This document shows positions 16,652 to 57,089 of a stretch of 64,000 bases of DNA, in pieces (the stretch's first letter is position 1; every line of letters begins with the position of its first letter). The DNA is from Candidatus Melainabacteria bacterium (GTDB lineage Bacteria; Cyanobacteriota; Vampirovibrionia; LMEP-6097), in NCBI GenBank assembly GCA_005110385.1, contig DUDT01000009.1, positions 1,660 to 65,659 of the forward strand. The letters are read 5' to 3'. The translations under genes and the position numbers were made by a program. Under the pieces are notes generated by a model that saw only the letters and a program-made list of their open reading frames with translations, made no database searches and was not told the origin of the DNA.

Positions 16652-19063
16652 CTACCAGTAAAAAAAGAGACCCATGTGGTTACCGAGGTAATTCCATGTA
16701 ATTTTATCAAAAATTTCTTTAAGAAGCGGAATTCCTCTGCCACCTTCACTTTCTGTGCTAACTTCATCGATACTCATATGTTTATGTCTTTGCCAATTAA
16801 ACCCTTTCCCTGGGTCTATCATAACGATTTTCAGTGAACCATCTTTAATTTCATAGCCGACTTGAACATGAGCTTCTCCAGAGTTTTTAACGCCGTATTG
16901 GGCTACATTAGCGAAAGCTTCTGTGAGACCGAGTCTTAAGATTAATCCGCTTTGTTCTGAAAGTCCATGCCTTCTGCAGTCATCGATTAAGACTTTTATA
17001 TAATTGTCACAGTTTTGATAATTGGTCATATCGACTGCTTCTAATTTAAATTCTTTTTGTTCTATGCAGAGTAAAAGTCTGTCATCGGTGACTTCACTGT
17101 CCCCGACTCTTTTGTTTAATTGTTGATTTAATCCTTCAGTGATTTGCTTAACGCTTTTATCAGTCATAGACTGTAGAGCATTTAGCATCCAGTCCTCATT
17201 GTTATTACTTGGGCTGATAAGAGTCTGCTCCATAAAGCCATCTGTGAAAAGTATAAGCTTATCTTTCGGTGATAATTGAATAGTCTGCCTCTGGTAATAA
17301 GCTTCTAGGTCTCTGGGGTCTATTAATCCGAGCGGTACGCCAGTGGGTTCATCGGCAGAGAGCATGATGGCTTTGCCATCTTTAATGACATAGGGTTTAA
17401 GGTGCCCAGCATTGGTGTAAGCTAGTTCTCCAGTGTGTAAATTAAAAACTCCATACCAAGCAGTCGCGTAAAAATCAGAATTATTACTTTGGGCTAACAG
17501 TGAGTCACATAAAAAAGATATAACTTTTTCAGGAGCCCAAGCGAGCGAAGAGTTTTCGATAATCGCGTTAAACTGTCCGAGAATATAACCAGTAAGTAGG
17601 GCAGCAGCAGGGCCTTTACCTGATACATCGCCGATTAATACGCCGACTACATCGGGGGAAAGTTCTGAAACCCAGTAGAAATCACCAGATACATTGCTGT
17701 GCGGCTTATATAGTACAGAAATATTCATGGAGGTATTTAAAATGTCACCACCAATAAGTGAGCTTTGTACTCTTGCTGCTTGCTTTAATTCACGTGAAAG
17801 CCTGCCTTGATAAGCATTTAACTGTTCATATATTTCAGACTGTGTCATCGCCACTATAACTTGACTAGCAGCTGATTCTACGAATGTCACTTCATCTTCA
17901 GTCCATGTTCGAGGAAATAGAGACTGAAATACTATCCAACCTCTTAATTCACCTTGGGCGAAAAGTGGCGTAGCCAGTGCCGATCTCGCTCCGGAATTTA
18001 TAAGCTCTTGTTTTTCTTCATCATTTAATTTTTGTAGATTTTCGGTCGAAATCAGGTTTTCGATTATTATTGTTGCGTAGATATCTTTAGTATTTAATTT
18101 ATCGAGAATTAAATGTTTGCATTGCCCTGCGATATTCGGAACACCAGTAGCGCAGAATTCTTCTGAAATATGATCATTCATGAAAAGGAAGCAGCGAGAG
18201 ACTTTTACGGCAAAGCCCAACTCATTAACTGTTCTTGAGAGTATCTCCTTGAGGTTTAAGCTTGAGCGAATTTGGCTGGTCAGGCTATTTAAGAGTTCTG
18301 CTTGTTTAGTTCTTTCATGTGATTTTTTAAAGAGGCGTGCTCTTTCTATGGCTGTCATTAATGGATAAGAGATCGCTTGTAATAACTGAATATCATTGTC
18401 TTGCCAATCAGTATGCTGTGAACAGTCTTGTAAATAAATTAAGCCTAAGACCTCGTTTCTGAGCAGTAAAGGTACGGAGAGAAATGAAAAAACATCATCT
18501 AAAAAATGATTAGAATATTCACTATTTATTTCCTCAAATTGCAGAGGTCTTTTACATCTGAGTATCCGAAAGAAAAATTCATCTCGTTTCAGTAAATTAT
18601 ATTCAAGGTTACGTCCATGCTCATCTTCACAAAATTCTACAACTTGAAATTTATTGCCTTGTAAAAAAACTATCCCGCAGCGACTAACTTTAAAGAATTT
18701 AGCCATTTGTTTAGTTAAATATTTAAGTATATGAGTGATGTTCAGTGAACTATTGACTTTCTCTACCCACTGATTTAAAAGCCTTTCTCTTTCAGCAAGA
18801 GCATGCGCAGACTGTCTTTCTTGCATTAAAGCGAAGGTGGTGTTCTGTAAATATAGGGATAGCCTTTCAGTTTCAGCTAAGGTTTTTTCCATCATTGCAG
18901 TTTTTTCTGCATTCAATAATCTCTCTTCTTCAAGCTGTTTAGCGAGGCTTTCAAGCTGTGCCTGCAATTCATCTAGAGACCCATGCACAACTCCGTTCTC
19001 TGCGTTTTTGTAATCGGTCTCTTTTGTATTATCTGCGTCAGTGGTTTTAGAATTATCTCTCAC
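16652..19063 (-). CDS. Multidomain partner-switching protein: coiled coil, two GAF domains, PP2C/SpoIIE phosphatase and RsbW-like HATPase_c kinase
   Basis: 803 aa. SpoIIE-type motifs (SGDFYW, GDVSGKG, LFTDG) and a C-terminal GHKL ATPase (NVAQYG ... GGRGIPL). Confidence 0.85.
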   Translation of the reverse strand: MRDNSKTTDADNTKETDYKNAENGVVHGSLDELQAQLESLAKQLEEERLLNAEKTAMMEKTLAETERLSLYLQNTTFALMQERQSAHALAERERLLNQWVEKVNSSLNITHILKYLTKQMAKFFKVSRCGIVFLQGNKFQVVEFCEDEHGRNLEYNLLKRDEFFFRILRCKRPLQFEEINSEYSNHFLDDVFSFLSVPLLLRNEVLGLIYLQDCSQHTDWQDNDIQLLQAISYPLMTAIERARLFKKSHERTKQAELLNSLTSQIRSSLNLKEILSRTVNELGFAVKVSRCFLFMNDHISEEFCATGVPNIAGQCKHLILDKLNTKDIYATIIIENLISTENLQKLNDEEKQELINSGARSALATPLFAQGELRGWIVFQSLFPRTWTEDEVTFVESAASQVIVAMTQSEIYEQLNAYQGRLSRELKQAARVQSSLIGGDILNTSMNISVLYKPHSNVSGDFYWVSELSPDVVGVLIGDVSGKGPAAALLTGYILGQFNAIIENSSLAWAPEKVISFLCDSLLAQSNNSDFYATAWYGVFNLHTGELAYTNAGHLKPYVIKDGKAIMLSADEPTGVPLGLIDPRDLEAYYQRQTIQLSPKDKLILFTDGFMEQTLISPSNNNEDWMLNALQSMTDKSVKQITEGLNQQLNKRVGDSEVTDDRLLLCIEQKEFKLEAVDMTNYQNCDNYIKVLIDDCRRHGLSEQSGLILRLGLTEAFANVAQYGVKNSGEAHVQVGYEIKDGSLKIVMIDPGKGFNWQRHKHMSIDEVSTESEGGRGIPLLKEIFDKITWNYLGNHMGLFFYW
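18978..19008 (-). repeat. AAACGCAGAA-type repeat embedded in an ORF (encodes KNAENGVVHGS)
   Basis: The reverse complement aaaacgcagagaacggagttgtgcatgggtc aligns with the intergenic consensus. Confidence 0.55.
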
Positions 19064-19064
19064 T

Positions 19065-19394
19065 TTAGCTAGTTTGCGAACTGATACTTGTTAATTGATG
19101 TAACCTTGCGATTTTTAAAAGGTTTTGAACGTGATCTACTACGTTCTGAAATTCAAGGTCCGCTCCAATGATTTTACACTCTTTCCAAAGTCTTACGAAA
19201 GAACCCATGCCCGCACTATCAATAAAATCTAATCTTTTACAATCTATGGTTACCTTACTCTGTTCTTTTAAATAGGGTAAAATAGTGTCCTTAAATTTTT
19301 CAGCTTCACTGTAAAGTAATTGCCCGCCCACCTCAATTTCAAGATGTTTTTCTTCATTCCGGACAATTTCTAATTCAAGCATAAGATCGTACAT
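19065..19394 (-). CDS. STAS-domain anti-sigma-factor antagonist
   Basis: 109 aa. DFIDSAGMGSF contains the phosphorylatable serine motif. Lies directly upstream of the phosphatase/kinase gene. Confidence 0.85.
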   Translation of the reverse strand: MYDLMLELEIVRNEEKHLEIEVGGQLLYSEAEKFKDTILPYLKEQSKVTIDCKRLDFIDSAGMGSFVRLWKECKIIGADLEFQNVVDHVQNLLKIARLHQLTSISSQTS

Positions 19395-19420: not shown

Positions 19421-20893
19421 ATGGTACTAGATCAATATACCCAGAATATAATCATAAGGAACTCAAAAGAACTAGTCAAAAATGCTAAAATCAACTCGGA
19501 AAATGGTTATATAGCTGATGTATCAGCTTTATCTCAAATAAATACAACAGATAACCTAGTCAAAAAACAGATAATTTCACCAGGTTTTATAAATTTACAC
19601 TCGCATCTTGCATATACGCATTTGGATTTAGAACCTAAAAATCTCTTCGCTTGGCTGAAAGATTTAATGCATAAAGTTCAAAATGAATCTTTTAATCCTA
19701 TGGAGGCAAGCCTTGCTGGAGCAAGGCTTGCACTCAGTACAGGTACGACATTTTTAGTAGATAATACTTCGCATTTAGCTGCAAGCGTAAAGGCTTTTCA
19801 GAAAACTGGTTTAAGAGGAATTATTGGGCTTGAGCTATTTGGGTCTGATCCACAGCAAGCTAAAACTATTTTAAATAAGGCGCTAGAAGAATTAAGGTTG
19901 ATGACACTTAGCCTAAAAGCTCAGCGGTTCGATGAAGTGCCTGAGCAGTGCCATAAAATTCAATTCGCTCTTTCACCACACTCTTTGTATAGTGTTTCTA
20001 GTGAATTAATGCAAGAGGCACAAGTATTCTTGTCTAATTTATCTAAAGAGTCTACTGTTTCTGATTTACTTCCTATTTTATTAATGCACTTTGCAGAAGA
20101 TGAGCTCGAAGAGAAATATTTTAGCGGTGTGGATTTTAGGCGTAATCACCTTATTGGTGATGGTTTTGAAGGTTCTTTATTACATGATGAACAGGAGCTT
20201 ACACTGATGTATGATTTCTGGGAGTCTCTTGGAGTTTTGGATTTAAAGAAGAGATATAGAAAGCAGGCTAGGTCATCGTGGGATTATTTTAAAAAATATG
20301 TACTTAGTGCAGAAAATGGGGTGAAGTATCAGTCTATTAAATATTTACTAACCCATGCTATAAATCTTTCAGAGACCGAGATTAAAGAACTCGCCAATTA
20401 TCCTGAAATTTCTTTAGTAAGCTGCCCTCGCAGTAATCAGTTTTTAAAACACAATAATGCTCAAATCGCTCTATGGGAGAAATATGGTACCTACGAGCCT
20501 AGCAAAAACGTAGAAGATAGAGTTGAGCATCGGTCTTATAATTATGGTTTGGGGACTGATAGTAAGGCTTCTAATTATGATTTAGATTTAAGGTCAGAGC
20601 TGAAGGTGCTGTTAGAGACTGTTAGAAATGCAGGAATTGGAGTCTCTCAACAGTACCTTGAATTAACTTCTCAGAGACAGTTTGAGCTATTAACTAGTTC
20701 TGCTGCTAAAGCTATAGGGATGGAGGATAAGATTGGTAGCCTAGAAGAAGCTAAGTATGCTGATTATGTAGTTTTTGAGGTTATGGATGATAATTTAGAT
20801 TTAGATTTAGTAGATCCTTATGCTTTAGTTTTAGATGGAGAGAAGACTCGGGTTAAAGAGGTTTATGTTGGGGGCGATCTAATCTCTATTTAA
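19421..20893 (+). CDS. Amidohydrolase-family metal-dependent hydrolase/deaminase
   Basis: PGFINLHSHLAY (HxH metal motif) and a C-terminal ADYVVF...V.V.G. It could be an (amino)futalosine- or MTA-type deaminase, but the substrate cannot be resolved. Confidence 0.7.
   Translation: MVLDQYTQNIIIRNSKELVKNAKINSENGYIADVSALSQINTTDNLVKKQIISPGFINLHSHLAYTHLDLEPKNLFAWLKDLMHKVQNESFNPMEASLAGARLALSTGTTFLVDNTSHLAASVKAFQKTGLRGIIGLELFGSDPQQAKTILNKALEELRLMTLSLKAQRFDEVPEQCHKIQFALSPHSLYSVSSELMQEAQVFLSNLSKESTVSDLLPILLMHFAEDELEEKYFSGVDFRRNHLIGDGFEGSLLHDEQELTLMYDFWESLGVLDLKKRYRKQARSSWDYFKKYVLSAENGVKYQSIKYLLTHAINLSETEIKELANYPEISLVSCPRSNQFLKHNNAQIALWEKYGTYEPSKNVEDRVEHRSYNYGLGTDSKASNYDLDLRSELKVLLETVRNAGIGVSQQYLELTSQRQFELLTSSAAKAIGMEDKIGSLEEAKYADYVVFEVMDDNLDLDLVDPYALVLDGEKTRVKEVYVGGDLISI
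20506..20535 (+). repeat. AAACGCAGAA-type repeat embedded in an ORF (encodes KNVEDRVEHRS), diverged
   Basis: aaacgtagaagatagagttgagcatcggtc aligns with copy C (aaacgcagaaataggagcttccgctacatgccc). Confidence 0.45.
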
Positions 20894-22193
20894 CAGCTTG
20901 CAACAACTGCAATAATTCCTCATAACTAGTATAATCTTCAGTTTTTTGTTTAAGAATATTATTGATTTTATCTATCGCGGCTACCGCCTTATCTATGGTG
21001 GGGTTATTACCTCGCTGATAAGCCCCAATGTTAATAAGATCTTTAGCGTCTTCATAGCTTGCCATATAGGTACGAAGAAGGCTGGCTGCTTCTTTATGCT
21101 CTGGGGTGACTATACTGCCCATAACCCTGCTCACTGATTGAAGTATATCTATGGCCGGAAAATGATTTTTATGAGCTAATTTGCGTGAAAGTACTATGTG
21201 ACCATCGAGGACGCCTCTAGCAAGGTCACTGATAGGCTCATTCATATCATCACCTTCGACTAGGACGGTGTAGAGGGCTGTGATACTGCCTTTTTCACCA
21301 GTGCCGCTTCTTTCTAATAGTCTTGGAATTAATGAAAAGACACTAGGTGTATAGCCTCTAGTCGCAGGTGGCTCGCCTACTGCTAGTCCTATTTCTCGTT
21401 GGGCTAATGCTACACGTGTAACGCTGTCTAGCATTAATAAAACATTTTTACCCTCTACATCTCTAAAATATTCTGCTATAGAATGAGCGAATAGAGCTGC
21501 TTTTACTCTGATTAGGCTAGGCTGGTCTCCTGTAGCTACTACTACTACTGATTTCTTTAAACCTTCCTCTCCTAAGCTTTCTTCGATAAATTCTCTTACT
21601 TCTCTGCCTCGCTCACCAATAAGGGCGATGACGTTAATATCGGCATCTGCGTTTTTTGCGATCATGCCCATAAGGGTACTCTTACCTACGCCTGAGCCAG
21701 CAAAGATCCCCATACGCTGACCTTTACCACAGGATAAGAAACCATCTAATGCCCTAACCCCAAAAAACATCTGCTCCTCTATACGACTCTTTTTCAGAGG
21801 ATTTAAAGTCTTAGCTGGCCATTGCGTAGCGGTGTGTTCAGCTCTAAGTTTAATTCCTTCGTCGAGTGGTTCACCGAAAGCATCTAAAATTCTGCCTTTT
21901 AGCCGAGGTCCTACTTTAATGGAAACTTGTTTTCCAGTAGGCACTACTTCTGCTCCCATTTTAAGTTCTTGAACTTCACCAAGTGGCATTAATAGTGTGT
22001 AATTGTCTCTGAAGCCTACTACCTCGGTTTTCAGGTAATTATTTCTTGATTTAATTAGGCATAATTCGCCGAGTTCCACTATTAAACCATCTGCTTCGAT
22101 AGTTAAACCGATAATTTTAGAAACCCTCCCTAGTGTGCGGACTTGAGAGCAGTCTTTTAAATCATTTTTTAATTCAGGGAAATTTAGTTTCAT
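20886..22193 (-). CDS. fliI: Flagellum-specific export ATPase FliI
   Basis: Walker A GSGVGKST, LIGERGREV and LLMLDSVTR, typical of the FliI/YscN family. Confidence 0.95.
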   Translation of the reverse strand: MKLNFPELKNDLKDCSQVRTLGRVSKIIGLTIEADGLIVELGELCLIKSRNNYLKTEVVGFRDNYTLLMPLGEVQELKMGAEVVPTGKQVSIKVGPRLKGRILDAFGEPLDEGIKLRAEHTATQWPAKTLNPLKKSRIEEQMFFGVRALDGFLSCGKGQRMGIFAGSGVGKSTLMGMIAKNADADINVIALIGERGREVREFIEESLGEEGLKKSVVVVATGDQPSLIRVKAALFAHSIAEYFRDVEGKNVLLMLDSVTRVALAQREIGLAVGEPPATRGYTPSVFSLIPRLLERSGTGEKGSITALYTVLVEGDDMNEPISDLARGVLDGHIVLSRKLAHKNHFPAIDILQSVSRVMGSIVTPEHKEAASLLRTYMASYEDAKDLINIGAYQRGNNPTIDKAVAAIDKINNILKQKTEDYTSYEELLQLLQAVK

Positions 22194-22228
22194 ATGCTTA
22201 TCCTCTTCTTTACTTAAGGCTTTTAAGC

Positions 22229-23014
22229 TTAGAAGTCCTCTGTTTCTGTTTTAAGTTTTATTTCTTCAGCTTTAAAGATACGCTTCTGTTTTAAATTCTC
22301 AGCGAGAGCGTTTATTTGGGCTGCTAATCTGAAATCTAACCTTTCTTTTTTACTTTCGACGATTAAATCCCCATCTTTAAGAGCAGAGTCTGCCACAATA
22401 ACTAAATTTTCTAAGTCTGGAAATTCGCTCAGAATAGTTTTTTTTACTTTGTTTAAATGTAGAGCAGTTTCTGGGGGGAGGAATAGGCTGACATCTTGCT
22501 TGTAGTTCAATTCTGAGATAGCAGTTTTTACCATACCGAGCATAGACTCTTTATCTAGAGAGAGTTCTTTGCCAATAATTTTCTCGGCTAAAATGAAAAT
22601 AAAATCTAATACACTGTTTTCTTCGTCTTCTAAGGCTTCACGTTTTTCTTGTTCAAGAGAGTTTAGAATGTTTGCACTGTTTGAGAGTATAGTGCTAAAT
22701 TTTTCATGTATTGTGTTAGTTGCATCCTGCTCACCTTTTTCAAAACCTTCATTGTAGGCGGTATCTCGTATAAATTGCTCTTCTTCTCTTGCACGAGTAA
22801 TGATTGCTTCAGCTTCAGCTTCAGCTTTTGCTTCAGCTTGTTGTAAATATCTTCTAGCTTTAATCTCCGCTTCAGTGATTCTTTCTCTTAAAATTTGCTC
22901 TTTGGTCGGTAGGTCTTTTATCTCATCATCACTTACGCCACCTATAACGACTGGTCTTGACTGAGATTCCAGCTTATTAGAAAAGACCTTTTTTCTTTTA
23001 TCATTTAAGTTCAA
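22229..23014 (-). CDS. fliH: Flagellar assembly protein FliH
   Basis: 261 aa. Charged E/A/K coiled region followed by a FliH/NtpE-like C-terminus. Positioned directly upstream of fliI. Confidence 0.7.
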   Translation of the reverse strand: MNLNDKRKKVFSNKLESQSRPVVIGGVSDDEIKDLPTKEQILRERITEAEIKARRYLQQAEAKAEAEAEAIITRAREEEQFIRDTAYNEGFEKGEQDATNTIHEKFSTILSNSANILNSLEQEKREALEDEENSVLDFIFILAEKIIGKELSLDKESMLGMVKTAISELNYKQDVSLFLPPETALHLNKVKKTILSEFPDLENLVIVADSALKDGDLIVESKKERLDFRLAAQINALAENLKQKRIFKAEEIKLKTETEDF

Positions 23015-23019
23015 TTAGT

Positions 23020-24681: not shown

Positions 24682-24721
24682 TTAATTCCAATCACCCTTT
24701 TATTTAAAACTTTTTTCTTAA

Positions 24722-25042
24722 TTACACTTGAATACTGTTAAGTTCTCTGTACCCTTCTATTAATCTATTTCTTACTTGAATCGCAAGATTAGTCGCCATC
24801 CCAGATTTTTCCATAAGAAGCATTACAGAGCTTGCATCCACATTCTTGCCAGATATATAATCTTCCATCGCATTTCCAGACTTAGTAGATAAATCTTTAA
24901 GTGCACCGATAGATTTTTCTAAAGTCTCTTGAAAAGTCTCTACTGAACCGCTTTTAAGCTGATCATAATAGGCAGTACTCGCCTGTAAAAGAGGTGTCTC
25001 CACGGAAGTATTAAAAAGCTTTAAGTTAGTTATTGCATCCAT
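24722..25042 (-). CDS. fliE: Flagellar hook-basal body complex protein FliE
   Basis: 106 aa with C-terminal LAIQVRNRLIEGYRELNSIQV, typical of FliE. Confidence 0.85.
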   Translation of the reverse strand: MDAITNLKLFNTSVETPLLQASTAYYDQLKSGSVETFQETLEKSIGALKDLSTKSGNAMEDYISGKNVDASSVMLLMEKSGMATNLAIQVRNRLIEGYRELNSIQV

Positions 25043-25061
25043 AATTTATTTCCTCTGAGTT

Positions 25062-25469
25062 TTAAATCTCTAATCCTGCACTGAACATCTCTTTGAAGGT
25101 TTGAATAGTTGTGATATTTGCTTGATAAGCTGATTTAGAAGTAATTAAATCTGTCATCTCTTCTTCTATAGAGATATTTGGATAATAGACATAACCTTTA
25201 TTATCAGCATCAGGATGGCTAGGATCGTAGACTGTGTTTAAAGCTTCTACGTCATTTATAATGCTGTCTGCTGCGACTCCTTGTACTATGCCTGTTTGTT
25301 CATCCATAATGGTTTTAAAAGATACTAGTTTTCTTAAATATGGTTGAACGGTACCATCTGCGGCATGCGTAGTATTCATGTTAGCGATATTACCTGCGAT
25401 AACATCCATTCTCAGTCTTTCAGCTCTGAGCGCACTACCTGCGATATCCATTAAGTCATAGCTCTGCAT
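25062..25469 (-). CDS. flgC: Flagellar basal-body rod protein FlgC
   Basis: Motifs AGSALRAERLRMDVIAGNIANMNTT and SYQANITTIQT. Confidence 0.9.
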   Translation of the reverse strand: MQSYDLMDIAGSALRAERLRMDVIAGNIANMNTTHAADGTVQPYLRKLVSFKTIMDEQTGIVQGVAADSIINDVEALNTVYDPSHPDADNKGYVYYPNISIEEEMTDLITSKSAYQANITTIQTFKEMFSAGLEI

Positions 25470-25477
25470 AGTTTAAG

Positions 25478-25978: not shown

Positions 25979-26968
25979 TCAGCTAGATGATTTTCTAGCA
26001 AAGGCTACAGCATTATGTGCATGAAGACTCTCTAAATGCTGTACTTTAATACTAAAATCGGAGAGATTTTCTAAGCTTTCACAGAAAAACTTTAACCTTC
26101 TTGCAGCATCCTCACTAAACATAAAGTTTCTACCATTAAGCCTTGCGAATTCTTGCTCATCTTCCCTTTTCACCGCTGCTTGGACGGGTGTTGATATAGC
26201 CTTTTCTAGACCATCTATTATCTCATCTAGATTAAGAGACTGATCACAATTTTCTATTTCTGTGTTTTCGTCGTTATCATTAATCTTAGGCTCCCCTGTA
26301 TGCATAAAATCTATATCAGCATAGCTTCTTTGACTATGAGGAGTAGCAACTTGACTTTCTTCTTTACCCAACCAATTATATATATCTGTAATACTAGGAG
26401 TTTGATCCCCAAATGTTTTTAAAAACTCTTCTTGTATAAGCTGCCGAGATAAGGCTGCGGAGCAAGGGCAGGTACTAGAGTAGGTTATTCGAATACTGGT
26501 CGTGAATGATATTTCATCTGCATGGTTTATCTCAGCTTTTAAAACCACCGGATAGGATCTCCAAGCATTGTTATCACTCACGAGAGCTGGTCTACGCAAC
26601 ATATAATCAAACTGGATTTCAACAAAGGCATTTAAACTCATATCTATATGAGACTCTTTTAATTTTTTAACTAAATCTCCAAGAGATTTATAGCTTAAAG
26701 GCTTCTCATCAAAAGTCTTATGTGCTTGCAATAGCAACCTCGACATATGTATCCCTTTTTTATGAGGAGCATCTAAACTAACATAAAGATTAGCGAAAGC
26801 TGGGATTAGGGTGACTTCCCCTTCGCTAGATTGAAGCTTAAGGGCAAGTTCAACCTTTTCCATCCCAACTTTTTCTAAAGTACCAGTAATTTGTGCTTTA
26901 GTTTCGATGGCAATATCTGGAAATGTGGGCGGTTTGTTCTTTTTTGTAGTGAAAAGTTCTACTTTCAT
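25979..26968 (-). CDS. folE2: GTP cyclohydrolase I type 2 (FolE2/MptA family) with a lineage-specific insertion
   Basis: KGIHMSRL and SSTCPCSAALS motifs of the DUF198/FolE2 family. Confidence 0.6.
   Translation of the reverse strand: MKVELFTTKKNKPPTFPDIAIETKAQITGTLEKVGMEKVELALKLQSSEGEVTLIPAFANLYVSLDAPHKKGIHMSRLLLQAHKTFDEKPLSYKSLGDLVKKLKESHIDMSLNAFVEIQFDYMLRRPALVSDNNAWRSYPVVLKAEINHADEISFTTSIRITYSSTCPCSAALSRQLIQEEFLKTFGDQTPSITDIYNWLGKEESQVATPHSQRSYADIDFMHTGEPKINDNDENTEIENCDQSLNLDEIIDGLEKAISTPVQAAVKREDEQEFARLNGRNFMFSEDAARRLKFFCESLENLSDFSIKVQHLESLHAHNAVAFARKSSS
26236..26268 (-). repeat. AAACGCAGAA-type repeat embedded in an ORF (encodes ENTEIENCDQSL), diverged
   Basis: gagactgatcacaattttctatttctgtgtttt aligns with the inverted consensus GGCACTnTTnCCGAACTTCAAnTTCTGCGTTT. 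Confidence 0.45.
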
Positions 26969-27040: not shown

Positions 27041-28309
27041 TTAACTGTTGAAGATTTTAACACCATTTTCTGTAATTATTTCACTAATTAATGAATTTGG
27101 CGTTATGTCGAATCCTGGGTTAAGGAACTTGACCTTAGTGACAGAATTTAGGTCTTGGCATTGTTCCCGAGCTTCAATTTCTGCATTTTCGTCGTCCTCA
27201 TGATCCTCATGTATGCTGTTATTCTTAATAAAAGTGCAGGCTTTGCCATTTATATGGCTAACCTCCTCTGTATTTCGATATTCTATTTCGATTTCATGAC
27301 CAGTCTTTAGATTTAAATCTATAGTGCTTTCTGGGGCGAGGACATAGAAAGGTATGCGGTGATGTTTTGCAAGAATGGCTACCTGGTAAGTACCTATTTT
27401 ATTTGCGACGTCGCCATTCAAGGTAATACGGTCACTGCCTACTACTACTAAATCGATCAGACCTTTATCCATAATAAAACCAGCCATGTTATCGCAGATC
27501 ATAGTAACGGGAATGTCCTCCTGTGCTAATTCCCAAGCAGTGAGACGAGAGCCTTGCTGGCGAGGGCGAGTTTCATCAGAATAAACCATGTTAAGTAAAC
27601 CTGCACGATGTAAACTTCTTATTAGACCTAGAGCAGTACCATAGCCACCTGTAGCTAAAGCACCAGCATTACAGTGAGTGAGAACGTTTAATTTACCTGT
27701 TTCTTTAATCTTTAGGGCTAAATCTTTCTTAACTAATTTTAGAGCATGTTCGGACATTGCCTTACAGCGATTATAATCATCTTCTTGAATCCAAATAGCT
27801 TTGTTTAAAAGTATCTGGTGTAGTTTTTCTAAGTCAGTATTTTGTTCAAGTGATATCTGTAACGCTTTATTTTCTATATTGCTGTTATGTTCTTGAATAG
27901 TGGCAGCCATTTCTCCTAATGCCCATGCTAGATTCACAGCAGTCGGACGCGTGGATAGTAGTCGGCTTGAGGCTTGGTTTAGAAAATTAATTAATTTATC
28001 TTTTGAAGATGGGTTTAGAGCAGCATTTTTTGTATTTTCATTGTTTTCATGATTTTTCTCTAAACATTGATAATTAGGGTTAGTCTGTATAAATTCCTGT
28101 AAAGCAAGCACCATGCCGTAAGCAGCAGCAATACCGATTAAAGGTGCCCCACGTAAAAGCATTTTCTCAATGGCAAGAGCCATATCTTCATGATTCTTTA
28201 TTTCAACCCACTTTAATTCATAGGGTAGAAGAGTTTGGTCAATAATAAACACAGATTGGCTTTCATGATTCCAGTAAATAGGAATAGTCTCAGTCTTCAG
28301 CGCTTGCAT
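27041..28309 (-). CDS. mtnA: S-methyl-5-thioribose-1-phosphate isomerase
   Basis: eIF-2B-related fold. Motifs RGAPLIGIAAAYG, TRPRQQGSRLTAWEL and VGSDRITLNGDVANKIGTY, plus two acidic insertions. Confidence 0.9.
   Translation of the reverse strand: MQALKTETIPIYWNHESQSVFIIDQTLLPYELKWVEIKNHEDMALAIEKMLLRGAPLIGIAAAYGMVLALQEFIQTNPNYQCLEKNHENNENTKNAALNPSSKDKLINFLNQASSRLLSTRPTAVNLAWALGEMAATIQEHNSNIENKALQISLEQNTDLEKLHQILLNKAIWIQEDDYNRCKAMSEHALKLVKKDLALKIKETGKLNVLTHCNAGALATGGYGTALGLIRSLHRAGLLNMVYSDETRPRQQGSRLTAWELAQEDIPVTMICDNMAGFIMDKGLIDLVVVGSDRITLNGDVANKIGTYQVAILAKHHRIPFYVLAPESTIDLNLKTGHEIEIEYRNTEEVSHINGKACTFIKNNSIHEDHEDDENAEIEAREQCQDLNSVTKVKFLNPGFDITPNSLISEIITENGVKIFNS
27157..27189 (-). repeat. AAACGCAGAA-type repeat embedded in an ORF (encodes ENAEIEAREQCQ)
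   Basis: ggcattgttcccgagcttcaatttctgcatttt is nearly identical to the copy inside the methyltransferase gene at 56795. Confidence 0.75.
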
Positions 28310-35600: not shown

Positions 35601-36732
35601 ATGCCAGAAGATCTTCAAATAGCTATAGATTCAGAGATAATCTCTAGTAAATATAATTCAATCAAGGAGTGTCTTTGATCTTAATGAGCTCAAAGAAGAA
35701 TTAAAGATTTTAGAGGGGAAGACTTTAGTAGAGGGCTTCTGGAATGATGTCAGCGAGGCTCAGGCTATATCTAAAGAGATTAGTTTTAAAAAAGAGCAGA
35801 TAGATAAAATAGATTCTTGGGCAAGGCGCCTAGAGGATTTTTTAGCTATGCAGGAGATGCTAGCTGAGACAGAGGAAGAACTCGAAAAACAAGATTTAGA
35901 TGAATTAATTCGTGAAGAATATTTTAAATTATTAACAGAATTAGAGGACTATGAATTTCTCTTGATGATGTCTGGAGATTATGATAAATCATCTGCGATT
36001 ATAAATATCAATGCTGGAGCTGGTGGTACTGATGCTCAGGATTGGGCGGAAATTCTTTTAAGGATGTATACACGCTGGGCGGAGATAACGAAAGGCTTTA
36101 CAGTAGAGCTTTTAGATAAATCTGATGGCGAGGAAGCTGGGATTAAATCAGCATCTTTAAAAATTTCTGGTCCTTATGCTTATGGTTATCTTTCGGCGGA
36201 GAAAGGCGTTCACAGGTTAGTGCGCAAATCTCCATTCAAATCTTCTGCTGACAGCAGGCAGACCAGTTTTGCGGGGGTCGAAGTTTGCCCTTTAATAGAT
36301 AGTTCTACTGAACTAAAAGGTTTTAAAGAATCTGATTTAGAAATTACTACTATGCGCTCTGGTGGAGCGGGCGGGCAGAATGTAAATAAAGTTGAGACAG
36401 CTGTCAGGGTAAGGCATATACCTACTGGCTTTGCTGTAAAATGTACTCAGGAACGGAGTCAGGCTCAAAATAAAGATAGAGCGATAGAGCAGATTAAATC
36501 TAAGCTGCTTGCTTTACAGGAAGAGGAAGAGCAGAAGAAGCTCGCTGAGCTTAAAGGAGAAGTTCTAAATGCTTCTTGGGGAAACGCTATTCGCTCTTAC
36601 GTCTTTGATGAAGGCAGGGTTAAGGATCATAGAACTAAGTATGAGACCCGTGATGTTGATGCTGTGATCAATGGTACAGAAGTTCTAGATGAATTTATAA
36701 GAGAGTTTTTAAAGTTTAAAACTGGGTCATAA
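35601..36732 (+). CDS. prfB: Peptide chain release factor 2, with programmed +1 frameshift (35601..35675 joined to 35677..36732)
   Basis: The frame-0 ORF MPEDLQ...KECL ends at CTT TGA (35673-35678) after the SD-like AAGGAG. The +1 frame continues DLNELKEEL... and carries SPF and GGQ motifs. Confidence 0.92.
35664..35679 (+). promoter_or_regulatory. RF2 autoregulatory +1 frameshift site
   Basis: AAGGAG TGT CTT TGA T contains an internal SD, the slippery CTT and an in-frame TGA. Confidence 0.9.
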
Positions 36733-36741
36733 GACCGGCAA

Positions 36742-36774
36742 AAACGCAGAAATAGGAGCTTCCGCTACATGCCC
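36742..36774 (+). repeat. AAACGCAGAA-type dispersed repeat, copy C (fills the gap between convergent prfB and purH)
   Basis: aaacgcagaaataggagcttccgctacatgccc starts 10 nt after the prfB stop and abuts the purH stop codon. Confidence 0.8.
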
Positions 36775-38373
36775 TTAATGCTTAAAATGCCTTATCTGAG
36801 TAAACGCCATAGCAATGCCTAAATCATCACAAGCTTTAATAACCTCTTCATCACGAATAGAACCACCTGGCTGAATAATCGCAGCTATATGGTTTTGGGC
36901 AGCGAGGTGCACATTATCAGCGAATGGGAAAAAACCATCAGAAGCCATTACGGCTCCCCTTGTATCTAAATCAAAATTACGCAGAGCATCCTCTACTGAC
37001 TTGACTCTGTTCGTCTGACCGACACCGATTCCTAGTGTCCTGCCGCCTTGAGTCGTCACTATCGCATTAGATTTAACATGCTTCACTACTTTTAAAGCTA
37101 GTATGAGATCCACCCATAGGCTTTCGTCTATAGTGGTCTTAGTAACGGTTTTTAATAAAGTCTGGTCTATAAGCTGATGATTAGCTGTTTGTATAAGGAA
37201 ACCACCATCAATTTTTTTAATATCTAAAAGATTCTGAGAATTTTTAAAATTAGGATGCTCTATTAATCTGATGTTCTTTTTCTGGGTGAGTATCGCAAAC
37301 GCTTCAGGGGTGAAGCTTGGAGCGATAACTGCTTCTAGGAAAATCTGACTTAATTCATTTGCTAGAGCTATGTCTACTGGATTATTTAGAGCTACCACTC
37401 CACCAAAAGCACTTACAGAGTCGGCTGCAAGGGCTTCTATAAAGGCTAAAGTGATATTAGGAGCTATTGCTACGCCACAAGGATTATTGTGTTTAACGAT
37501 AGCTGCACAAGGAATCTCTGGACCATACTCTTGGACTATATTATAGGCAGCGGAAAGATCAAGTAAATTATTAAAACTCAGATCTTTTCCATGTAATTTA
37601 TTTGCATCAGCAAGTCCACGATATTTTGAATTAGATTCAATATAAAGACCAGCCTGCTGATGAGGGTTTTCACCATAACTTAGCGTCCTCACTCTCTCTA
37701 AATTTAAAGTAAGTTTTTCAGGTAGTAAATTTTCATCTGTGGAGCTGCTTTCAGCAGTCGTTTTAAAAGAATCAGTGTTCGCTTGAGCTAAAAATCTTTC
37801 GATTACAGTATCATAGGCACTAGTCATCCTAAAAGTCTCAGCAGCTAGCTGTTTTCTATAATTTAGATCTAGAGATTTACTTTTATATCTCTCAGTAAAA
37901 GCATCATATTGATCAGGATTAGACAGTGTTATAACGTGCCTGAAATTCTTAGAAGCAGCTCTTAAAAGGCTGGGTCCACCTATATCTATATTTTCTATAG
38001 CTATATCTAGGGACTGCTCCCTATCTTCAATTTCTGCGTTAAGGTTTTTAGTAACTTCAGCGAAAGGATAGAGATTAACTATAACAAGGTCTATAGATAA
38101 TATATTTTCTCTTTCTATTTCTTCTAAATGCTGGTGATTATTTCTGTCATAAAGAATGGCTCCAAAAATTTTCGGATGTAGCGTTTTCACTCTGCCTGAA
38201 AGTATCTCTGGGAAATTACTGAGATCCCGAACCTCAGTTACTTTATAACCAGCAGCCTTGATAAAAGCCGCTGTACCAGAACTGCTGATAAAGTCATACT
38301 CAGCATCAAGAACTTCTAAAAGTTCTTCTAACTTAGATTTATCGGAAACAGAGATTAGAGCCTTTTTTTTCAT
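36775..38373 (-). CDS. purH: Bifunctional AICAR transformylase / IMP cyclohydrolase
   Basis: 532 aa. Motifs ALISVSDK, NLYPF, ENIDIGGPSLLRAASKN and a C-terminal FTQIRHFKH. Confidence 0.95.
   Translation of the reverse strand: MKKKALISVSDKSKLEELLEVLDAEYDFISSSGTAAFIKAAGYKVTEVRDLSNFPEILSGRVKTLHPKIFGAILYDRNNHQHLEEIERENILSIDLVIVNLYPFAEVTKNLNAEIEDREQSLDIAIENIDIGGPSLLRAASKNFRHVITLSNPDQYDAFTERYKSKSLDLNYRKQLAAETFRMTSAYDTVIERFLAQANTDSFKTTAESSSTDENLLPEKLTLNLERVRTLSYGENPHQQAGLYIESNSKYRGLADANKLHGKDLSFNNLLDLSAAYNIVQEYGPEIPCAAIVKHNNPCGVAIAPNITLAFIEALAADSVSAFGGVVALNNPVDIALANELSQIFLEAVIAPSFTPEAFAILTQKKNIRLIEHPNFKNSQNLLDIKKIDGGFLIQTANHQLIDQTLLKTVTKTTIDESLWVDLILALKVVKHVKSNAIVTTQGGRTLGIGVGQTNRVKSVEDALRNFDLDTRGAVMASDGFFPFADNVHLAAQNHIAAIIQPGGSIRDEEVIKACDDLGIAMAFTQIRHFKH
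38011..38040 (-). repeat. AAACGCAGAA-type repeat embedded in an ORF (encodes LNAEIEDREQSL)
   Basis: ggactgctccctatcttcaatttctgcgtt. It lies in a loop between NLYPF and ENIDIGG that is longer than in the E. coli PurH sequence as I recall it. Confidence 0.7.
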
Positions 38374-42189: not shown

Positions 42190-43404
42190 ATGCCTAATAA
42201 TGATGCCAAAAATTTAATTGAATTTATTGATATCTTAAATGTTAAAAATTTTGTAGAACTTGCAAATAAGACCTGTAAATTATTGGTAGAGAAATTTTCT
42301 AAGCAAAATGCTGACTTCGCTTATTTCTATCTTTCTGGTTACGAAGGGAAAATATATTATTCACTGAAAGATGATAAAAAAGCCGCTAAATTTTCCATTA
42401 CTGAATCTGACACTAGTGAATTTAAAAAGATTTATTACATACACAAAGAAACAGAAGGTCATATTAGTTCTGCCTTCACTGTTTTTAGCCGAACTAAATC
42501 AGCTAATAATTTAGCTAAGAACGCAGAATTTGAAAATCACGAGCAGCCCCCTAGCACTCTCCCAGAGAAGGATTTAGAGCTTTTAAATAGAATGGTGAGC
42601 GCTATATTAGATCAAATTTCTTTATTATCAGCTTTAGAGAATATTCAGTTAAACAATGAAAGATTAGTGAAACTTAACGAAAATAAGACCCAGATATTAG
42701 GCACCGTCTCGCACGAATTAAGGACTCCGATGTCTGCGATATTAGGTTTTAGTGAGCTTTTGTTAAATGCTTCGTACAGCCCCGAGCTTACAAAAAAATA
42801 TTTAGAAGAAATCTATCAAGCTTCTAAAAAACTTGCTGGTTTAATAGATGATTTCCTCGATTTATCACGCTTAGAATCAAATGATGAATTATTTCTAAGT
42901 GATTTTGAAGCAGTTGAGATATCGACTCTTGCAAGAAAAGCATGGGATGAGATTCAGGATCAACATAAACCATATTCGGTTAAGTGGGCTGTGAATTCTG
43001 AGATGCCCTATATACTCTGTGACGTAGTAGCTGTCGAGAGGGTATTTCATAATTTATTCTCGAATGCCATAAAGTATTCACCGATAGAGGTTTCTAAGCC
43101 AGATAGAAAAGTGATTAACTGTAGAATAGATATAGTCACGGCAGCAAGTCCAGAGAATTTTTTTGATGAAATTTCTGTATCTATTAGTGACAACGGAATG
43201 GGTATCGCTAAAGAGAATGTAGGACAGGTTTTTGAGCGTTTTATGCGAGTAGATAATAGTGATACACGTAAAATCGGTGGCACGGGGCTCGGTTTATGGA
43301 TCTGCAAGCAGATTATCGAAGCTCATGGTGGTAAGATCTGGTGTGAGAGTGAGCTTGGACAGGGTAGTGTGTTTAAGTTTATTTTGCCGATTTATCGGGG
43401 GTGA
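42190..43404 (+). CDS. Cytoplasmic sensor histidine kinase (HisKA plus HATPase_c)
   Basis: H-box [15 protein letters not shown]-box [10 protein letters not shown], and G-boxes DNGMGI and [11 protein letters not shown]. Confidence 0.85.
42520..42550 (+). repeat. AAACGCAGAA-type repeat embedded in an ORF (encodes [12 protein letters not shown])
   Basis: aacgcagaatttgaaaatcacgagcagcccc aligns with the intergenic consensus from the AACGCAGAA core to the terminal GCCCC. Confidence 0.6.
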
Positions 43405-43406
43405 GA

Positions 43407-43437
43407 GGCTGCTCATCAGCTCCAGTTTCTGCGTTTT
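43407..43437 (-). repeat. AAACGCAGAA-type dispersed repeat, copy D (inverted, partly diverged; right after the kinase stop)
   Basis: ggctgctcatcagctccagtttctgcgtttt. Its TTTCTGCGTTTTAA end supplies the stop codon of the 596-aa gene. Confidence 0.65.
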
Positions 43438-45226
43438 AAAAATTCATTAATTCATTAAATGCCTTATCATAATAACTATTCGAGTTCTCAATATCAGTAT
43501 CTAGGCTAAGTGTGTCTGTATCTTTGCTTTCATCGTAATTAAAGAATACAGTTCTAGAATGACTTTTATAACAGGCATCTTCTAGGCTCATTTCATTATT
43601 TTTTAAACGATTAAAATTTCCTTCTAAAAATCTTAACGGCAATATATAGAAATTAAAATCGAGGGACTCCTGTGCAATTCCATTTCCTGCATTTTTCTCG
43701 TTCTTTTTTTTATCTGGATTTAAAAGATTATGTTTAATAGCAAGCCTAGTTATTTTTTCTTTTAAGATACTGTTTCCTTCACTATTTGCAGTGTTAATTA
43801 AACTAAAAGTTTGATCTGAAATGACTAATATCGGTATAATTTCAGCTTCCTTTTTAGTTTTAGTGGCTCCCTTTGCGCCATCTTCAGTGTTGCACTGTTT
43901 ACAACCTGGATTCTCACTATAAAGCTGAATAACACCCTCTGCGAGCTTTTCTATATTCTTTTCTATTTTATCTTCATCATAAATATCCTTAAGTGCGAAG
44001 TGATAGTTTAGTTTCAGTGATTTGATTTCAATAATATAAATTTTTTCATCCGTGATGATTTTTAAATCTGAGACTTTTTCTTGACCATAGATATTAATAA
44101 ATAGATCTTTAATAAACTGCTCGAATAAATCTCCATAAAAGCTTCTAAAGGGCTGAGCAGCTCTGAGACCTTCGCTCTTAAATTCTTCTCTATAAATATC
44201 ATCTAGAGCATTAAATAACGCGTCCTCTAAAATTATATTTCTCAAATATGGATATACGGGACTAAGAAAAAAAGGATATCGATTTTTATATTTTCTATCA
44301 GGTCTTATCAATGGATAGATCATCAGAGGGTTTATCGGGTTTAATTCTTTAGCTTTTTCTTGAAATTCTTTATAGGAGAGGGAGAAGGGCATTAGGGTTT
44401 TAATGATTGAATCTTTTTCTATTGACTCATTTACCTCAAGCAAGCGAGCTTGTATTTTTGGAAGATCCTCTTCTTCCCATTTGATGCTCTGATAATCTAT
44501 ACACCCACTAAAATTATACTTGCCTTGCTTCCAGCCCAATTCTTTATCGTGTAAGACTCCGAGGGAACCAAATATCAGAAAAGCCTTCATGGATAAAGAA
44601 AATTTTTCTTTAAATTTAGTTTCTGGGTTAATACTCTCAGTCTTTGCCTCAGTGGCAATATTACTAAATAGTTTTTTATGACGTTTTTTAAATTCTTCTT
44701 TCTTCGCATCTTTCTCTGTGAGATGCTTATAGGCTTTAATAAAAATTAAATACTGCCTAGCAAGTAAGTGCCTGCGATTAGACTGTCTCTGAATTTGATA
44801 CTTAGCTTGCATTTCCCATAAATGCAGCCAAAATTGAGCATTCCACATATCTGAATCTCTAATTCTTATTTCTTCCCCATTTTCAGTTTTCAAGTCTGGA
44901 GATTTATGAACTACGTGATACCAAAGATATCCACTGACATTGAAAAAATACTCAAGCTTCTCAACTTTATCCTTTCTAGCACTGAGATATAAAGCCTTTG
45001 TATCATTTGCACCGCTGATGATAAGTAACTGAACTAAATATCCGAGGCTTTCTTGAGTGAACATCACATCCTTATTTTTATAAGCAAAGCCATTACTAAT
45101 TTCACTTGAGGCATCTGGATTAGCATAGAGATATTCAGAGACCTTTCCTATTTCGAGTAGAGCATCCTGAAGGTTATATTTGCCTAGCTCGCGTATTAAA
45201 TCATGTTCAGTAATTTTGCGTTGCAT
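43436..45226 (-). CDS. Hypothetical 596-aa protein with a candidate PD-(D/E)xK nuclease core
   Basis: I recognise no family. The segment GDLFEQFIKDLF...VSDLKIITDEKIYIIEIKS fits helix-E, then D, then a beta hairpin, then ExK of restriction-endonuclease-like folds. Confidence 0.65.
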   Translation of the reverse strand: MQRKITEHDLIRELGKYNLQDALLEIGKVSEYLYANPDASSEISNGFAYKNKDVMFTQESLGYLVQLLIISGANDTKALYLSARKDKVEKLEYFFNVSGYLWYHVVHKSPDLKTENGEEIRIRDSDMWNAQFWLHLWEMQAKYQIQRQSNRRHLLARQYLIFIKAYKHLTEKDAKKEEFKKRHKKLFSNIATEAKTESINPETKFKEKFSLSMKAFLIFGSLGVLHDKELGWKQGKYNFSGCIDYQSIKWEEEDLPKIQARLLEVNESIEKDSIIKTLMPFSLSYKEFQEKAKELNPINPLMIYPLIRPDRKYKNRYPFFLSPVYPYLRNIILEDALFNALDDIYREEFKSEGLRAAQPFRSFYGDLFEQFIKDLFINIYGQEKVSDLKIITDEKIYIIEIKSLKLNYHFALKDIYDEDKIEKNIEKLAEGVIQLYSENPGCKQCNTEDGAKGATKTKKEAEIIPILVISDQTFSLINTANSEGNSILKEKITRLAIKHNLLNPDKKKNEKNAGNGIAQESLDFNFYILPLRFLEGNFNRLKNNEMSLEDACYKSHSRTVFFNYDESKDTDTLSLDTDIENSNSYYDKAFNELMNF

Positions 45227-46597: not shown

Positions 46598-46630
46598 AAA
46601 CGCAGAACTTGGAGTTCGGCAATAGTGCCC
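46598..46630 (+). repeat. AAACGCAGAA-type dispersed repeat, copy E (19 nt upstream of the trmFO GTG)
   Basis: aaacgcagaacttggagttcggcaatagtgccc is the best consensus-like copy. Confidence 0.85.
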
Positions 46631-56370: not shown

Positions 56371-56401
56371 GGGCGTGTAGCCGAACTCCTATTTCTGCGT
56401 T
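56371..56401 (-). repeat. AAACGCAGAA-type dispersed repeat, copy F (fills the gap between convergent genes)
   Basis: gggcgtgtagccgaactcctatttctgcgtt starts right after the TAG at 56368-56370 and overlaps the TAA of the methyltransferase gene. Confidence 0.8.
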
Positions 56402-57089
56402 ACTGCACGCTGTGCAGCGATCTTTCCAGAATGAGTACTCGACTACCATTATCCACTGTCGTATAACTAAGCTGCTTAAAACCTGCTTCTGTAAATAATC
56501 TTGTTAAGTCCTCATCTGAATAGTTCCTGAGATACATACCTTTTCGCATAGGGTCTAAATATTGACGCGTACCATCATCGAAGCATATAAACTCACCCTT
56601 ATTACTAGTCGCCACCACATCAAAAACACCATAAATATATGCTTGAGGCTTTAAATGCTTTTTTAAATTAGCTAACAATTGAGCAGCACTAGCTAAATCA
56701 AAATGCTCAAGGCAAGCGTTCATGATTACACAATCAAAATCCTTCTCTGTTAGCTGCATGTCTAAGATATCCGCACAATAAAATTCTACATCTAGGCACT
56801 GTTCCCGAACTTCAATTTCAGCGTTTCCCTTCTTCGCAAGATTAATCGCCGCCTCTGAAGTATCCACACCACGCACTTTAAAACCAGCCTTCGCTAACAT
56901 AAAAGATAACCAACCAGAGCCACAAGCTAAATCAAGAATTTTTGTTATGGGATATTTTTTTAAATCTGGAATTATATTCTTTATATACTCAAGATTAGGA
57001 GGAGTGTATACAGCCTTAGTAACTCTTTGCCATGCAGCCTCCCAAAATTTGAGGTTCATTTTATAATTTTCTAAATTAACTTGAAGCAT
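56400..57089 (-). CDS. Class I SAM-dependent methyltransferase
   Basis: Motif I ILDLACGSGWLS and the acidic VDTSE post-I motif. Confidence 0.85.
   Translation of the reverse strand: MLQVNLENYKMNLKFWEAAWQRVTKAVYTPPNLEYIKNIIPDLKKYPITKILDLACGSGWLSFMLAKAGFKVRGVDTSEAAINLAKKGNAEIEVREQCLDVEFYCADILDMQLTEKDFDCVIMNACLEHFDLASAAQLLANLKKHLKPQAYIYGVFDVVATSNKGEFICFDDGTRQYLDPMRKGMYLRNYSDEDLTRLFTEAGFKQLSYTTVDNGSRVLILERSLHSVQ
56795..56826 (-). repeat. AAACGCAGAA-type repeat embedded in an ORF (encodes GNAEIEVREQCL)
   Basis: ggcactgttcccgaacttcaatttcagcgttt matches both the mtnA-internal copy and the intergenic consensus. Confidence 0.75.

Follow-up and report, generated by a model that had tools for sequence, protein, structure and literature searches.

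A 121-nt hairpin-forming repeat occupies a single reading frame in unrelated genes of a Candidatus Melainabacteria bacterium and is probably a non-autonomous mobile element

Introduction

Rickettsia palindromic elements (RPEs) are palindromic repeats of about 100-150 nt that lie in frame in unrelated metabolic genes and also in intergenic DNA; the peptide that they encode is conserved and has been considered to fit the host protein's fold, and 44 RPE integrations have been reported in R. conorii (PMC10969869). [quoted passage not shown] Repetitive extragenic palindromic (REP) sequences and REPINs are hairpin-forming dispersed repeats that show compensatory stem changes and cluster in convergent intergenic regions (PMC3116915, PMC3733652). 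Here, we describe a repeat family in a 64,000-nt stretch of contig DUDT01000009.1 from Candidatus Melainabacteria bacterium; this whole stretch is called the window. A first-pass annotation of the window had noticed a 31-nt repeat that is read in one frame in at least seven unrelated genes. This 31-mer is the right terminus of a 121-nt unit, which is probably a non-autonomous hairpin-forming mobile element of the MITE or RPE type.

The 31-nt repeat is the right end of a 121-nt unit

The 31-nt pattern AACGCAGAAATTGAAGnnCGGGAACAGTGCC is found at three sites of the window at up to three mismatches (0.00 expected), and its 15-nt head at 14 sites (0.41 expected). A profile built from the window copies detects 13 sites at E<=3e-5 (nhmmer), including 27157, 38011, 56795, 42520 and 26236. 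The copies at 18978 and 20506 are marginal with this profile (E 1.4 and 4.3) and clear with a profile of a sister subfamily ('d') from related genomes (E 8.5e-8 and 1.7e-6). The seven intragenic copies named in the first-pass annotation are therefore all real by pattern, profile or 'd'-profile search, and profile searches give no match to the copy that it had suspected at the N-terminus of fliF. Its list of seven genes holds and is incomplete, because two genic copies, at 20627 and 43693, and six intergenic ones had been overlooked. The window contains 15 right-end copies, 9 genic and 6 intergenic. The genic ones lie in eight ORFs (open reading frames) that are Pfam-confirmed or long: those for a GAF-PP2C protein, an amidohydrolase (two copies), FolE2, MtnA, PurH, a histidine kinase, a 596-aa protein and an S-adenosylmethionine (SAM) methyltransferase. 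All nine are on the sense strand in one frame, in which AAY is read as an Asn codon. A dispersed DNA-level repeat that keeps one frame and one orientation in unrelated genes, as had been proposed, is thus seen at every genic site of the window.

A census of right ends over about 460 kb, consisting of the window and related loci, yields 109 copies. These loci were picked for having one right-end match, some copies are orthologous between metagenome-assembled genomes (MAGs) and hence non-independent, and "genic" in the census means an open stretch of at least 600 nt rather than a gene call. Because 47 of the 109 copies are intergenic, the repeat is not confined to ORFs as had been thought. The flanks of 96 copies identify the 31-mer as the right end of a larger unit, and an alignment of 25 full copies sets the length of this unit at 121 nt. 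Consequently, the 31-mer can no longer be taken as the whole element, which has inverted arms and is bordered by 5-bp duplications. Most window copies are deletion remnants of the 121-nt element, and the window also holds four left-end or internally deleted fragments.

The element consists, in order, of a 15-nt left arm, CGWRCAAGTTCAAGGCTGAGGAGGACGAATGACCG, a hairpin (CAGTGTAC-loop-GTACATG), AGGATCATGAGGACGACGAA, AACGCAGAAATTGGAG and a 15-nt right arm. A conserved purine-rich segment of 35 nt follows the left arm, and GAGGACGACGAA-AACGCAGAAATTGGAG lies between the central stem-loop and the right arm. The termini carry the motifs GG[GC]ACTG...CAAGTTC on the left and GAAATTGGAG...CAGT[GC]CC on the right, and the arms begin with GG[GC]AC or GAGAC. 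Pairwise identity between copies is 0.61-0.63 in the arms and 0.90 in the core, and the right arm is complementary to the left arm within each copy. In the terminal stem, all 15 pairs have changes on both sides, and 95.8% of the cells are paired compared with 79.1% in shuffles and 26-55% with a slid partner. An imperfect inner extension of the arms pairs CAAGTTC with GAAATTG. The central hairpin and a lower helix (positions 44-49 with 73-79) also show compensatory changes, and single-strand folding gives z-scores of -4.4 to -6.5 against shuffles. The element contains no transposase gene, and its open frames are 40-aa read-throughs only. Short length, terminal inverted repeats, a fixed-length target duplication and dispersed polymorphic copies are traits of MITEs that the element shows.

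In several related loci (L066:3258-3448, L007:834-1032, L092:2924-3122, L077:4477-4672 and L061:1050-1239), the loop of the central hairpin houses another small repeat, of about 60-130 nt (…GGTAATTTCYAGCGATGCCGAGSATGCGAG-hairpin-CTCATATSCGAGCAAGCRGAAATACAAGCTTGATTYATCAAGCT). The inner hairpin of this second repeat varies with compensatory changes, and a genic composite is still read in frame (…AEDASHVSGSYPSKQKYKLDLSSLHEDHEDDENAEIG…).

Insertion adds 42 codons and is polymorphic among orthologs

The 5-nt flanks of full copies have 74 matches against 41.5±5.1 expected from permuted pairs, and this signal is confined to register 0 and length 5. The 11 full copies without an upstream right end show the same excess (35 matches against 19.2±3.4, p=2e-5). 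Statistically, insertion duplicates 5 bp of a target that is A/T-rich. Because 121 + 5 nt makes 126 nt, which equals 42 codons, insertion cannot shift the reading frame.

Orthologs of PurH and MtnA at 75-97% identity have the same loop empty or occupied by a full, partial or solo copy. Between NLYPFAEVTKNL and LD.AIENIDIGG, the loop varies among PurH orthologs that share 81-97% identity outside it. The loop is empty in L002 (P0017), P0019 and P0020, where a six-residue linker such as SQSDND is found. In L004, a full element sits there between ATGGT and ATGAT. L001 combines a solo right end with a full element that is bordered by TAAAT and TAGAT and inserted 13 nt away. P0002 has a left arm plus a right end, and the window a solo right end. 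The window PurH aligned with PDB entry 4ehi has an 8-residue gap exactly at NAEIEDRE. An AlphaFold model of the window PurH, with a moderate predicted local distance difference test (pLDDT) score of 70.8, dips to 66 at residues 111-120. The MtnA site measures 54 nt when empty (L115) and gains 45 nt with a solo right end (L117), 69 nt in the window and 171 nt (45+126) with a solo right end and a full element (L116). The window MtnA has about 30 extra residues relative to 1t9k, and FolE2 about 50 around its copy relative to FolE2 chains in the PDB. The segments are thus lineage-specific loop insertions, as the first-pass annotation had suggested.

The coexistence of empty and filled states in orthologs indicates that the peptide is an insertion and not ancestral sequence. 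An ancestral or convergent protein motif, N-A-E-I-E-x-R-E-Q, with the nucleotide similarity being secondary, might have accounted for the same peptide at nine positions in eight window proteins. However, close orthologs without the repeat also lack the peptide, so that this route to dismissing the repeat fails, and PDB homologs are gapped exactly at the peptide. Nearly half of the census copies are outside genes, and third codon positions are conserved like first and second ones. With the empty-site orthologs refuting it, such a motif has a negligible chance of being the explanation. Equally implausible is a genomic signal for DNA uptake or for protein binding that is biased in frame within coding DNA, for which the high density and the strand and frame bias in genes could speak. 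Such a signal does not fit a 121-nt unit with inverted arms and target duplications, copies that are nested or in tandem, deletion derivatives or presence/absence polymorphism, and outer 15 nt that differ between copies are a misfit for sequence-specific uptake. The analogy with uptake sequences drawn in the first-pass annotation is therefore set aside.

The window and relatives at 90-94% identity also differ by the presence or absence of other segments of 44-46 nt, whose sequences are not related to that of the main element (window 28877-28920; L001:3410-3455; L001:10215-10259 and L004:16623-16667). They could be further small mobile repeats, and for the segment at 28877-28920 of the window (AAATGCGATTATGGAGCAGCTCC…) a very diverged copy of the element is possible.

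One reading frame in genes

Equal use of all six frames, which the first-pass annotation had set against its own interpretation, is not observed. Among the 62 census copies in open stretches, 53 are in one sense frame (F0), 5 in other sense frames and 4 antisense (binomial p=2e-32). At least 14 of the F0 copies are full inserts of 42 aa, and nested composites also belong to this set. The F0 consensus is G-T-A-x-x-R-x-S-S-R-L-R-R-T-N-D-R-S-V-L-x-V-H-E-D-H-E-D-D-E-N-A-E-I-G-V-x-x-Q-x, and RTSSRLRRTNDRSV and HEDHEDDENAEI are predicted junction peptides. Conservation at the three codon positions is nearly equal (0.947, 0.940 and 0.959), indicating that the similarity is at the DNA level rather than the protein level. 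Within the 25 full copies, F0 is free of stop codons in 21, the antisense frame R0 in 16, and every other frame in at most 2. The F0 peptide is very hydrophilic (grand average of hydropathy, GRAVY, -1.42; 45% charged residues), whereas the R0 peptide is more hydrophobic and basic (GRAVY -0.56).

Intergenic copies lie preferentially where genes converge (16 of 33). Those between co-directional genes comprise 7 in sense and 3 in antisense, which is not significant and too few to show or exclude a bias, and thus there is no sign of strong orientation targeting among them. Two frames are open, only the hydrophilic sense frame is kept, and no clear strand bias is seen between genes; this points to selection over targeting. 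We infer that the single genic frame reflects purifying selection. The alternative that frame and orientation stem from insertion itself, through a target motif in codon phase or a coupling to the direction of transcription or replication, draws on the flanking 5-mers, which are non-random (ATGAT, TAGAT, AAGAT, CTAAT and similar), and on the genic sense:antisense ratio of 53:4, which exceeds that of the stop-free frames among full copies (21:16). Furthermore, 14 of the 25 full copies lie beside an existing right end, and so targeting of some kind exists. However, nearly all full copies carry stop codons in four of the six frames, so that selection must act, and the insertions in PurH used two 5-mers 13 nt apart and are both in frame. 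Together with the 7 and 3 copies between co-directional genes, this makes insertion targeting an unlikely cause of the single frame.

At L081:2515-2830, three units are arranged head to tail with a 126-nt period in one ORF, and hence the element can build in-frame tandem protein repeats.

Decay and the origin of solo right ends

The upstream right end of the 14 full copies is on the same strand and 5 nt away, an arrangement with a chance expectation of about 1%. The solo copy in the MtnA gene of L117 combines the left junction of the upstream right end of L116 with the arm of the downstream element of L116. For MtnA, it fits recombination between two right ends that removed exactly 126 nt, and such recombination is probably a general route to solo copies. 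This route keeps the frame and explains why the right end is the commonest remnant. Many truncation junctions lie at short internal direct repeats (ACGAA, TGAGGA and GAGGAC). Flanking duplications at truncated and solo copies are at chance level only, and a model of 5'-truncated insertion was dropped on this ground in favour of deletions.

The truncated copies also bear on the idea that the element is a structured RNA or moves via one, either as a retro-mobile sequence with variable 5' truncation or as a functional mRNA module. Compensatory changes in the terminal stem, the lower central helix (pairs 44-79 and 46-77) and the upper hairpin are in line with it, as are a G·U pair at 53-70 conserved in 23 of 25 copies and the higher coverage of right ends (~98) than of left ends (~45). 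RNA intermediates were reportedly proposed for the small dispersed repeats of Nostoc by Elhai et al. in 2008. However, the right-end excess is partly an ascertainment effect, and the 16 G·T against 7 A·C pairs in the terminal stem are suggestive only, the difference not being significant. The 5-bp target duplications are present at full copies and absent from truncated ones, the truncation points at ACGAA and TGAGGA suggest deletions, and the strict stop-free frame indicates that the sequence is translated and not spliced out. A search of Rfam 15 at the gathering score over the window and six loci (119 kb) returned tRNA only, and a permissive scan of one full copy stayed at chance level (best 23.6 bits against a gathering score of 75). 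An RNA-based origin is hence a little less probable still than insertion targeting.

A model for insertion, selection and mobilisation

In the explanation that we favour, the element would insert with duplication of 5 bp of A/T-rich target and would thereby add 126 nt or 42 codons. Purifying selection would retain genic copies in the sense, stop-free, hydrophilic frame only. The copies would then decay by deletion at internal direct repeats and by recombination of right ends 126 nt apart, the latter leaving in-frame solos. Mobilisation would presumably occur in trans, through a transposase cutting with a 5-bp stagger, and the element may prefer to insert beside existing ends.

Several points weigh against this explanation. 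Neither the window nor about 400 kb of related loci yielded a transposase or an autonomous partner, so that the transposase is deduced from the 5-bp duplication alone. Pfam searches of about 48 window ORFs gave no transposase or reverse transcriptase and only an Xer-like recombinase N-domain. An autonomous parent with left and right ends 0.5-5 kb apart was not seen in the ~400 kb of loci, where split matches are nested insertions of 62-129 nt. Arms that differ within one genome are unusual for sequence-specific binding by a transposase. The genic excess of sense over antisense copies is larger than stop codons alone explain; selection would account for it if only the hydrophilic sense peptide were tolerated in protein loops, a hypothetical premise. 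Finally, the counts come from loci chosen by one match, with non-independent orthologous copies and open stretches standing for genes.

The outer 15 bp differ between copies and yet stay complementary, which makes recognition by shape rather than by sequence possible. It is conceivable, although we rate it as rather improbable, that all these properties belong together in an element adapted to genes by its 126-nt increment, its one charged sense frame and its frame-preserving decay, and perhaps recognised by shape. Recognition by shape would imply a structure-dependent transposition, through a single-strand hairpin, that still leaves a 5-bp duplication. If the genome-wide density equals that of the sample, the same module of 13-42 aa would be present in hundreds of proteins of this lineage, providing a large natural experiment in loop insertion, and the module would possibly serve the host as a shared peptide or an mRNA-level handle.

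Host genomes and distribution

A scan of species-representative genomes with GAAAAYGCAGRAATTGRAG gave multiple matches in five MAGs only and single chance matches elsewhere. These MAGs are labelled as Vampirovibrionia, Ca. Caenarcaniphilales, Cyanobacteria, "bacterium" and, in one case, "Proteobacteria"; the lineage of the related MAGs rests on deposited labels and source names. The density in the five MAGs and the window is 1.7-4.6 copies per 10 kb, whereas control loci have 0.10 per 10 kb. Viral contigs contain no exact match to the conserved core, and blastn gives no match between the consensus and plasmids or phages. This repeat family was not described in any paper that the literature searches returned, and no paper in the library searched ties Melainabacteria or Caenarcaniphilales to such repeats.

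An orthologous in-gene copy is shared by L007:1312-2112 and L085:1608-2408, which are about 100% identical over the 400 nt upstream of the copy and about 96% identical downstream. The arm of this copy differs at 8 of about 22 positions between the two loci, of which the MAG labels are Vampirovibrionia and "Proteobacteria", respectively. The step in identity suggests a recombination boundary or an ectopic conversion between repeat copies, and the "Proteobacteria" label of RFQS01 is suggested to be wrong.

A flagellar export and basal-body cluster at window 20886-25894, with genes for a FliI-type ATPase, FliH, FliF, FliE and rod proteins, adjoins folE2 and mtnA. This cluster and the source names of homologs (Melainabacteria and Caenarcaniphilales) indicate that the window comes from a flagellated, non-photosynthetic sister lineage of cyanobacteria.

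Copies in the window

Genic copies are described first. The GAF-PP2C gene (16652..19063, Pfam) carries a solo right end of the 'd' subfamily at 18976..19006 on the minus strand, read in frame 0 as KNAENGVVHGS (E 8.5e-8). The amidohydrolase gene (19421..20893) has two solo right ends in frame 0 on the plus strand, one of the 'd' subfamily at 20507..20537 (NVEDRVEHRS, E 1.7e-6) and the other at 20627..20657 (NAGIGVSQQY, E 4.7e-7). The FolE2 gene contains a diverged solo right end (DENTEIENCDQS) at 26236..26272 on the minus strand (frame 0, E 1.8e-5). In the MtnA gene, the right 59 nt of the element (IHEDHEDDENAEIEAREQC) are found at 27157..27215 on the minus strand (model positions 63-120, full-model E 7.6e-13). 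A tentative candidate for an old decayed copy, also assigned to MtnA (HENNENTKNAALNP), lies at 28002..28053 on the minus strand, with a 63% match within repeat family D1; it is within an insert of about 28 aa relative to 1t9k and is missing in P0143, P0144 and P0147. The solo right end of the PurH gene at 38010..38040 (minus strand, frame 0, NAEIEDREQS) is matched by both pattern and profile and followed by TAGAT. The histidine kinase gene carries a solo right end at 42520..42550 on the plus strand (E 4.2e-6), with an orthologous copy at L004:5854, and the 596-aa ORF (43436..45226) a diverged one at 43663..43693 on the minus strand (NAGNGIAQES, frame 0, E 2.9e-5). The right 48 nt of the element occur in the SAM methyltransferase gene at 56795..56842 on the minus strand (GNAEIEVREQC, frame 0, E 2.4e-8, full-model positions 74-121).

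The six intergenic right ends are at 6475, 8186, 36743, 43435, 46599 and 56401, and convergent stop codons tightly flank those at 36743, 43435 and 56401. The first is a solo right end (GACGAA + 31 nt) at 6469..6505 on the plus strand (nhmmer E 6.9e-8, full-model positions 85-121); the stop codon of ORF 6066..6467 lies 2 nt before it, and the ATG of a LeuA-like gene follows directly at 6506. The assignment of this copy to frame "F1" is an artefact of a TTG ORF extended upstream. At 8134..8186 on the minus strand, a solo right end (8155-8186) is followed by an orphan right arm (8134-8148), beginning at the stop codon of the LeuA-like gene. The release-factor gene and purH converge, and the right ~50 nt of the element at 36724..36773 on the plus strand fill the interval between their stop codons, with orthologous copies at L001:5363 and L004:11744. 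A solo right end at 43405..43435 on the minus strand (E 3e-6) fits exactly between the convergent stop codons at 43404 and 43436. The best match, a solo right end at 46599..46629 on the plus strand (E 8e-9), is in a divergent intergenic region upstream of a GidA-family (Pfam GIDA) gene and has an orthologous copy at L004:1701. An internally deleted element at 56371..56422 on the minus strand (E 6.6e-7), consisting of a left-arm remnant and a right end, makes the 3' end and stop codon of a methyltransferase gene.

Other fragments include a mini-element at 12709..12748 on the plus strand, 4 nt past a stop codon, composed of the left arm, 19 nt of the core and the tip of the right arm (full-model positions 2-34). 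An intergenic, internally deleted copy at 61346..61406 on the minus strand has a 'd'-type left arm, the first 35 nt of the core and the right-arm tip (positions 9-54, E 7.7e-7). Two degenerate left halves lie in a long intergenic region at 8640..8729 on the plus strand (full-model positions 4-52, E 9.2e-6).

Other features of the window

The intergenic stretch at 8135-9344 is unusually long and contains a motif of about 50 nt three times, at 8320, 8820 and 9041 (ATAACTTTCCRTGTTTCTGTACCAAA…GGTTGRCG…). Each motif lies upstream of a GGAGG-type site, and two precede ORFs of about 55-60 aa that start with MNL… (~8394-8572 and ~9170-9337). No Rfam family matches the stretch at the gathering threshold, and it could serve as a cassette for small peptides or for a leader RNA.

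The gap between the genes for the release factor and a pseudouridine synthase is occupied by a defence-type island in L001:6639-9905 and L004:13049-16312 (Eco57I-like methylase/restriction enzyme, GmrSD and HEPN). In the window, it holds instead a 593-aa ORF without a Pfam match (33695-35476). The release-factor ORF (35848-36732) starts at position 50 of Pfam PCRF, and its orthologs in L004 and L001 are longer (335-359 aa). The short ORF fits either the programmed +1 frameshift of RF2 genes or a misplaced start.

Comparison with known systems

The decay of the element resembles the formation of solo long terminal repeats (LTRs), in which direct terminal repeats recombine, the body is lost and one repeat stays. 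The likeness is one of decay only: the repeats here are right ends of about 40 nt placed 126 nt apart, and no retroelement is involved.

Membership in the REP/REPIN group was rejected because of size, location and target duplication. REPs are 20-40 nt long and extragenic with a conserved GTAG/CGTC head, whereas the element is 121 nt long with 62 of 109 copies in long open frames. The Y1 transposases of REPs and REPINs (REP-associated tyrosine transposases, RAYT) leave no target duplication, whereas the element has one of 5 bp. The core of the element is conserved and its arms are variable, which is opposite to REPINs.

Like the element, MITEs such as Coxiella QMITE1/2, Correia and ERIC are small, end in inverted repeats, are flanked by direct repeats and occur in many dispersed copies. 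Both also prefer intergenic DNA and the 3' ends of genes (PMC5896051). In contrast to MITEs, more than half of the element copies are genic and in one frame, and the terminal 15 nt are not conserved in sequence. The element also has no known parent insertion sequence in the window or in the ~400 kb of loci searched. The co-varying and sequence-variable termini raise a testable question about how a putative transposase recognises its substrate.

The small dispersed repeats of Nostoc, described by Elhai et al. in Genome Research in 2008, are said to be 21-27 nt long, to share a secondary structure and to show compensatory mutations as well as nested insertions. Like the element, they belong to the cyanobacterial lineage, are structured and are nested, a comparison made by description. 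To our knowledge, single-frame occupation of genes has not been reported for them.

RPEs, named as a precedent in the first-pass annotation, are the right one: they are palindromic repeats lying in frame in unrelated genes with a conserved peptide. The element works like an RPE, the likeness being by description and membership not being claimed. It differs from RPEs in its host, a non-photosynthetic relative of cyanobacteria rather than an alphaproteobacterium, in the 5-bp duplication that brings the increment to 126 nt (42 codons), in arms that vary between copies and co-vary within a copy, and in the recurrent arrangement of a right end plus a full element. Its density is about 2-5 copies per 10 kb, for comparison with the 44 integrations of R. 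conorii. The host lineage and the repeat family are new, and the phenomenon itself is known from Rickettsia; notable traits are the density, the 126-nt arithmetic and the sequence-variable yet complementary termini. The allelic series of empty, full, partial and solo states in PurH and MtnA captures insertions becoming short lineage-specific loop peptides. For annotation and phylogenomics, it is a warning that shared "motifs" and length variation in housekeeping proteins of these MAGs are transposon scars. The element extends persistence by translation of the Rickettsia type, at a roughly ten-fold higher density, to a free-living or predatory sister lineage of cyanobacteria.

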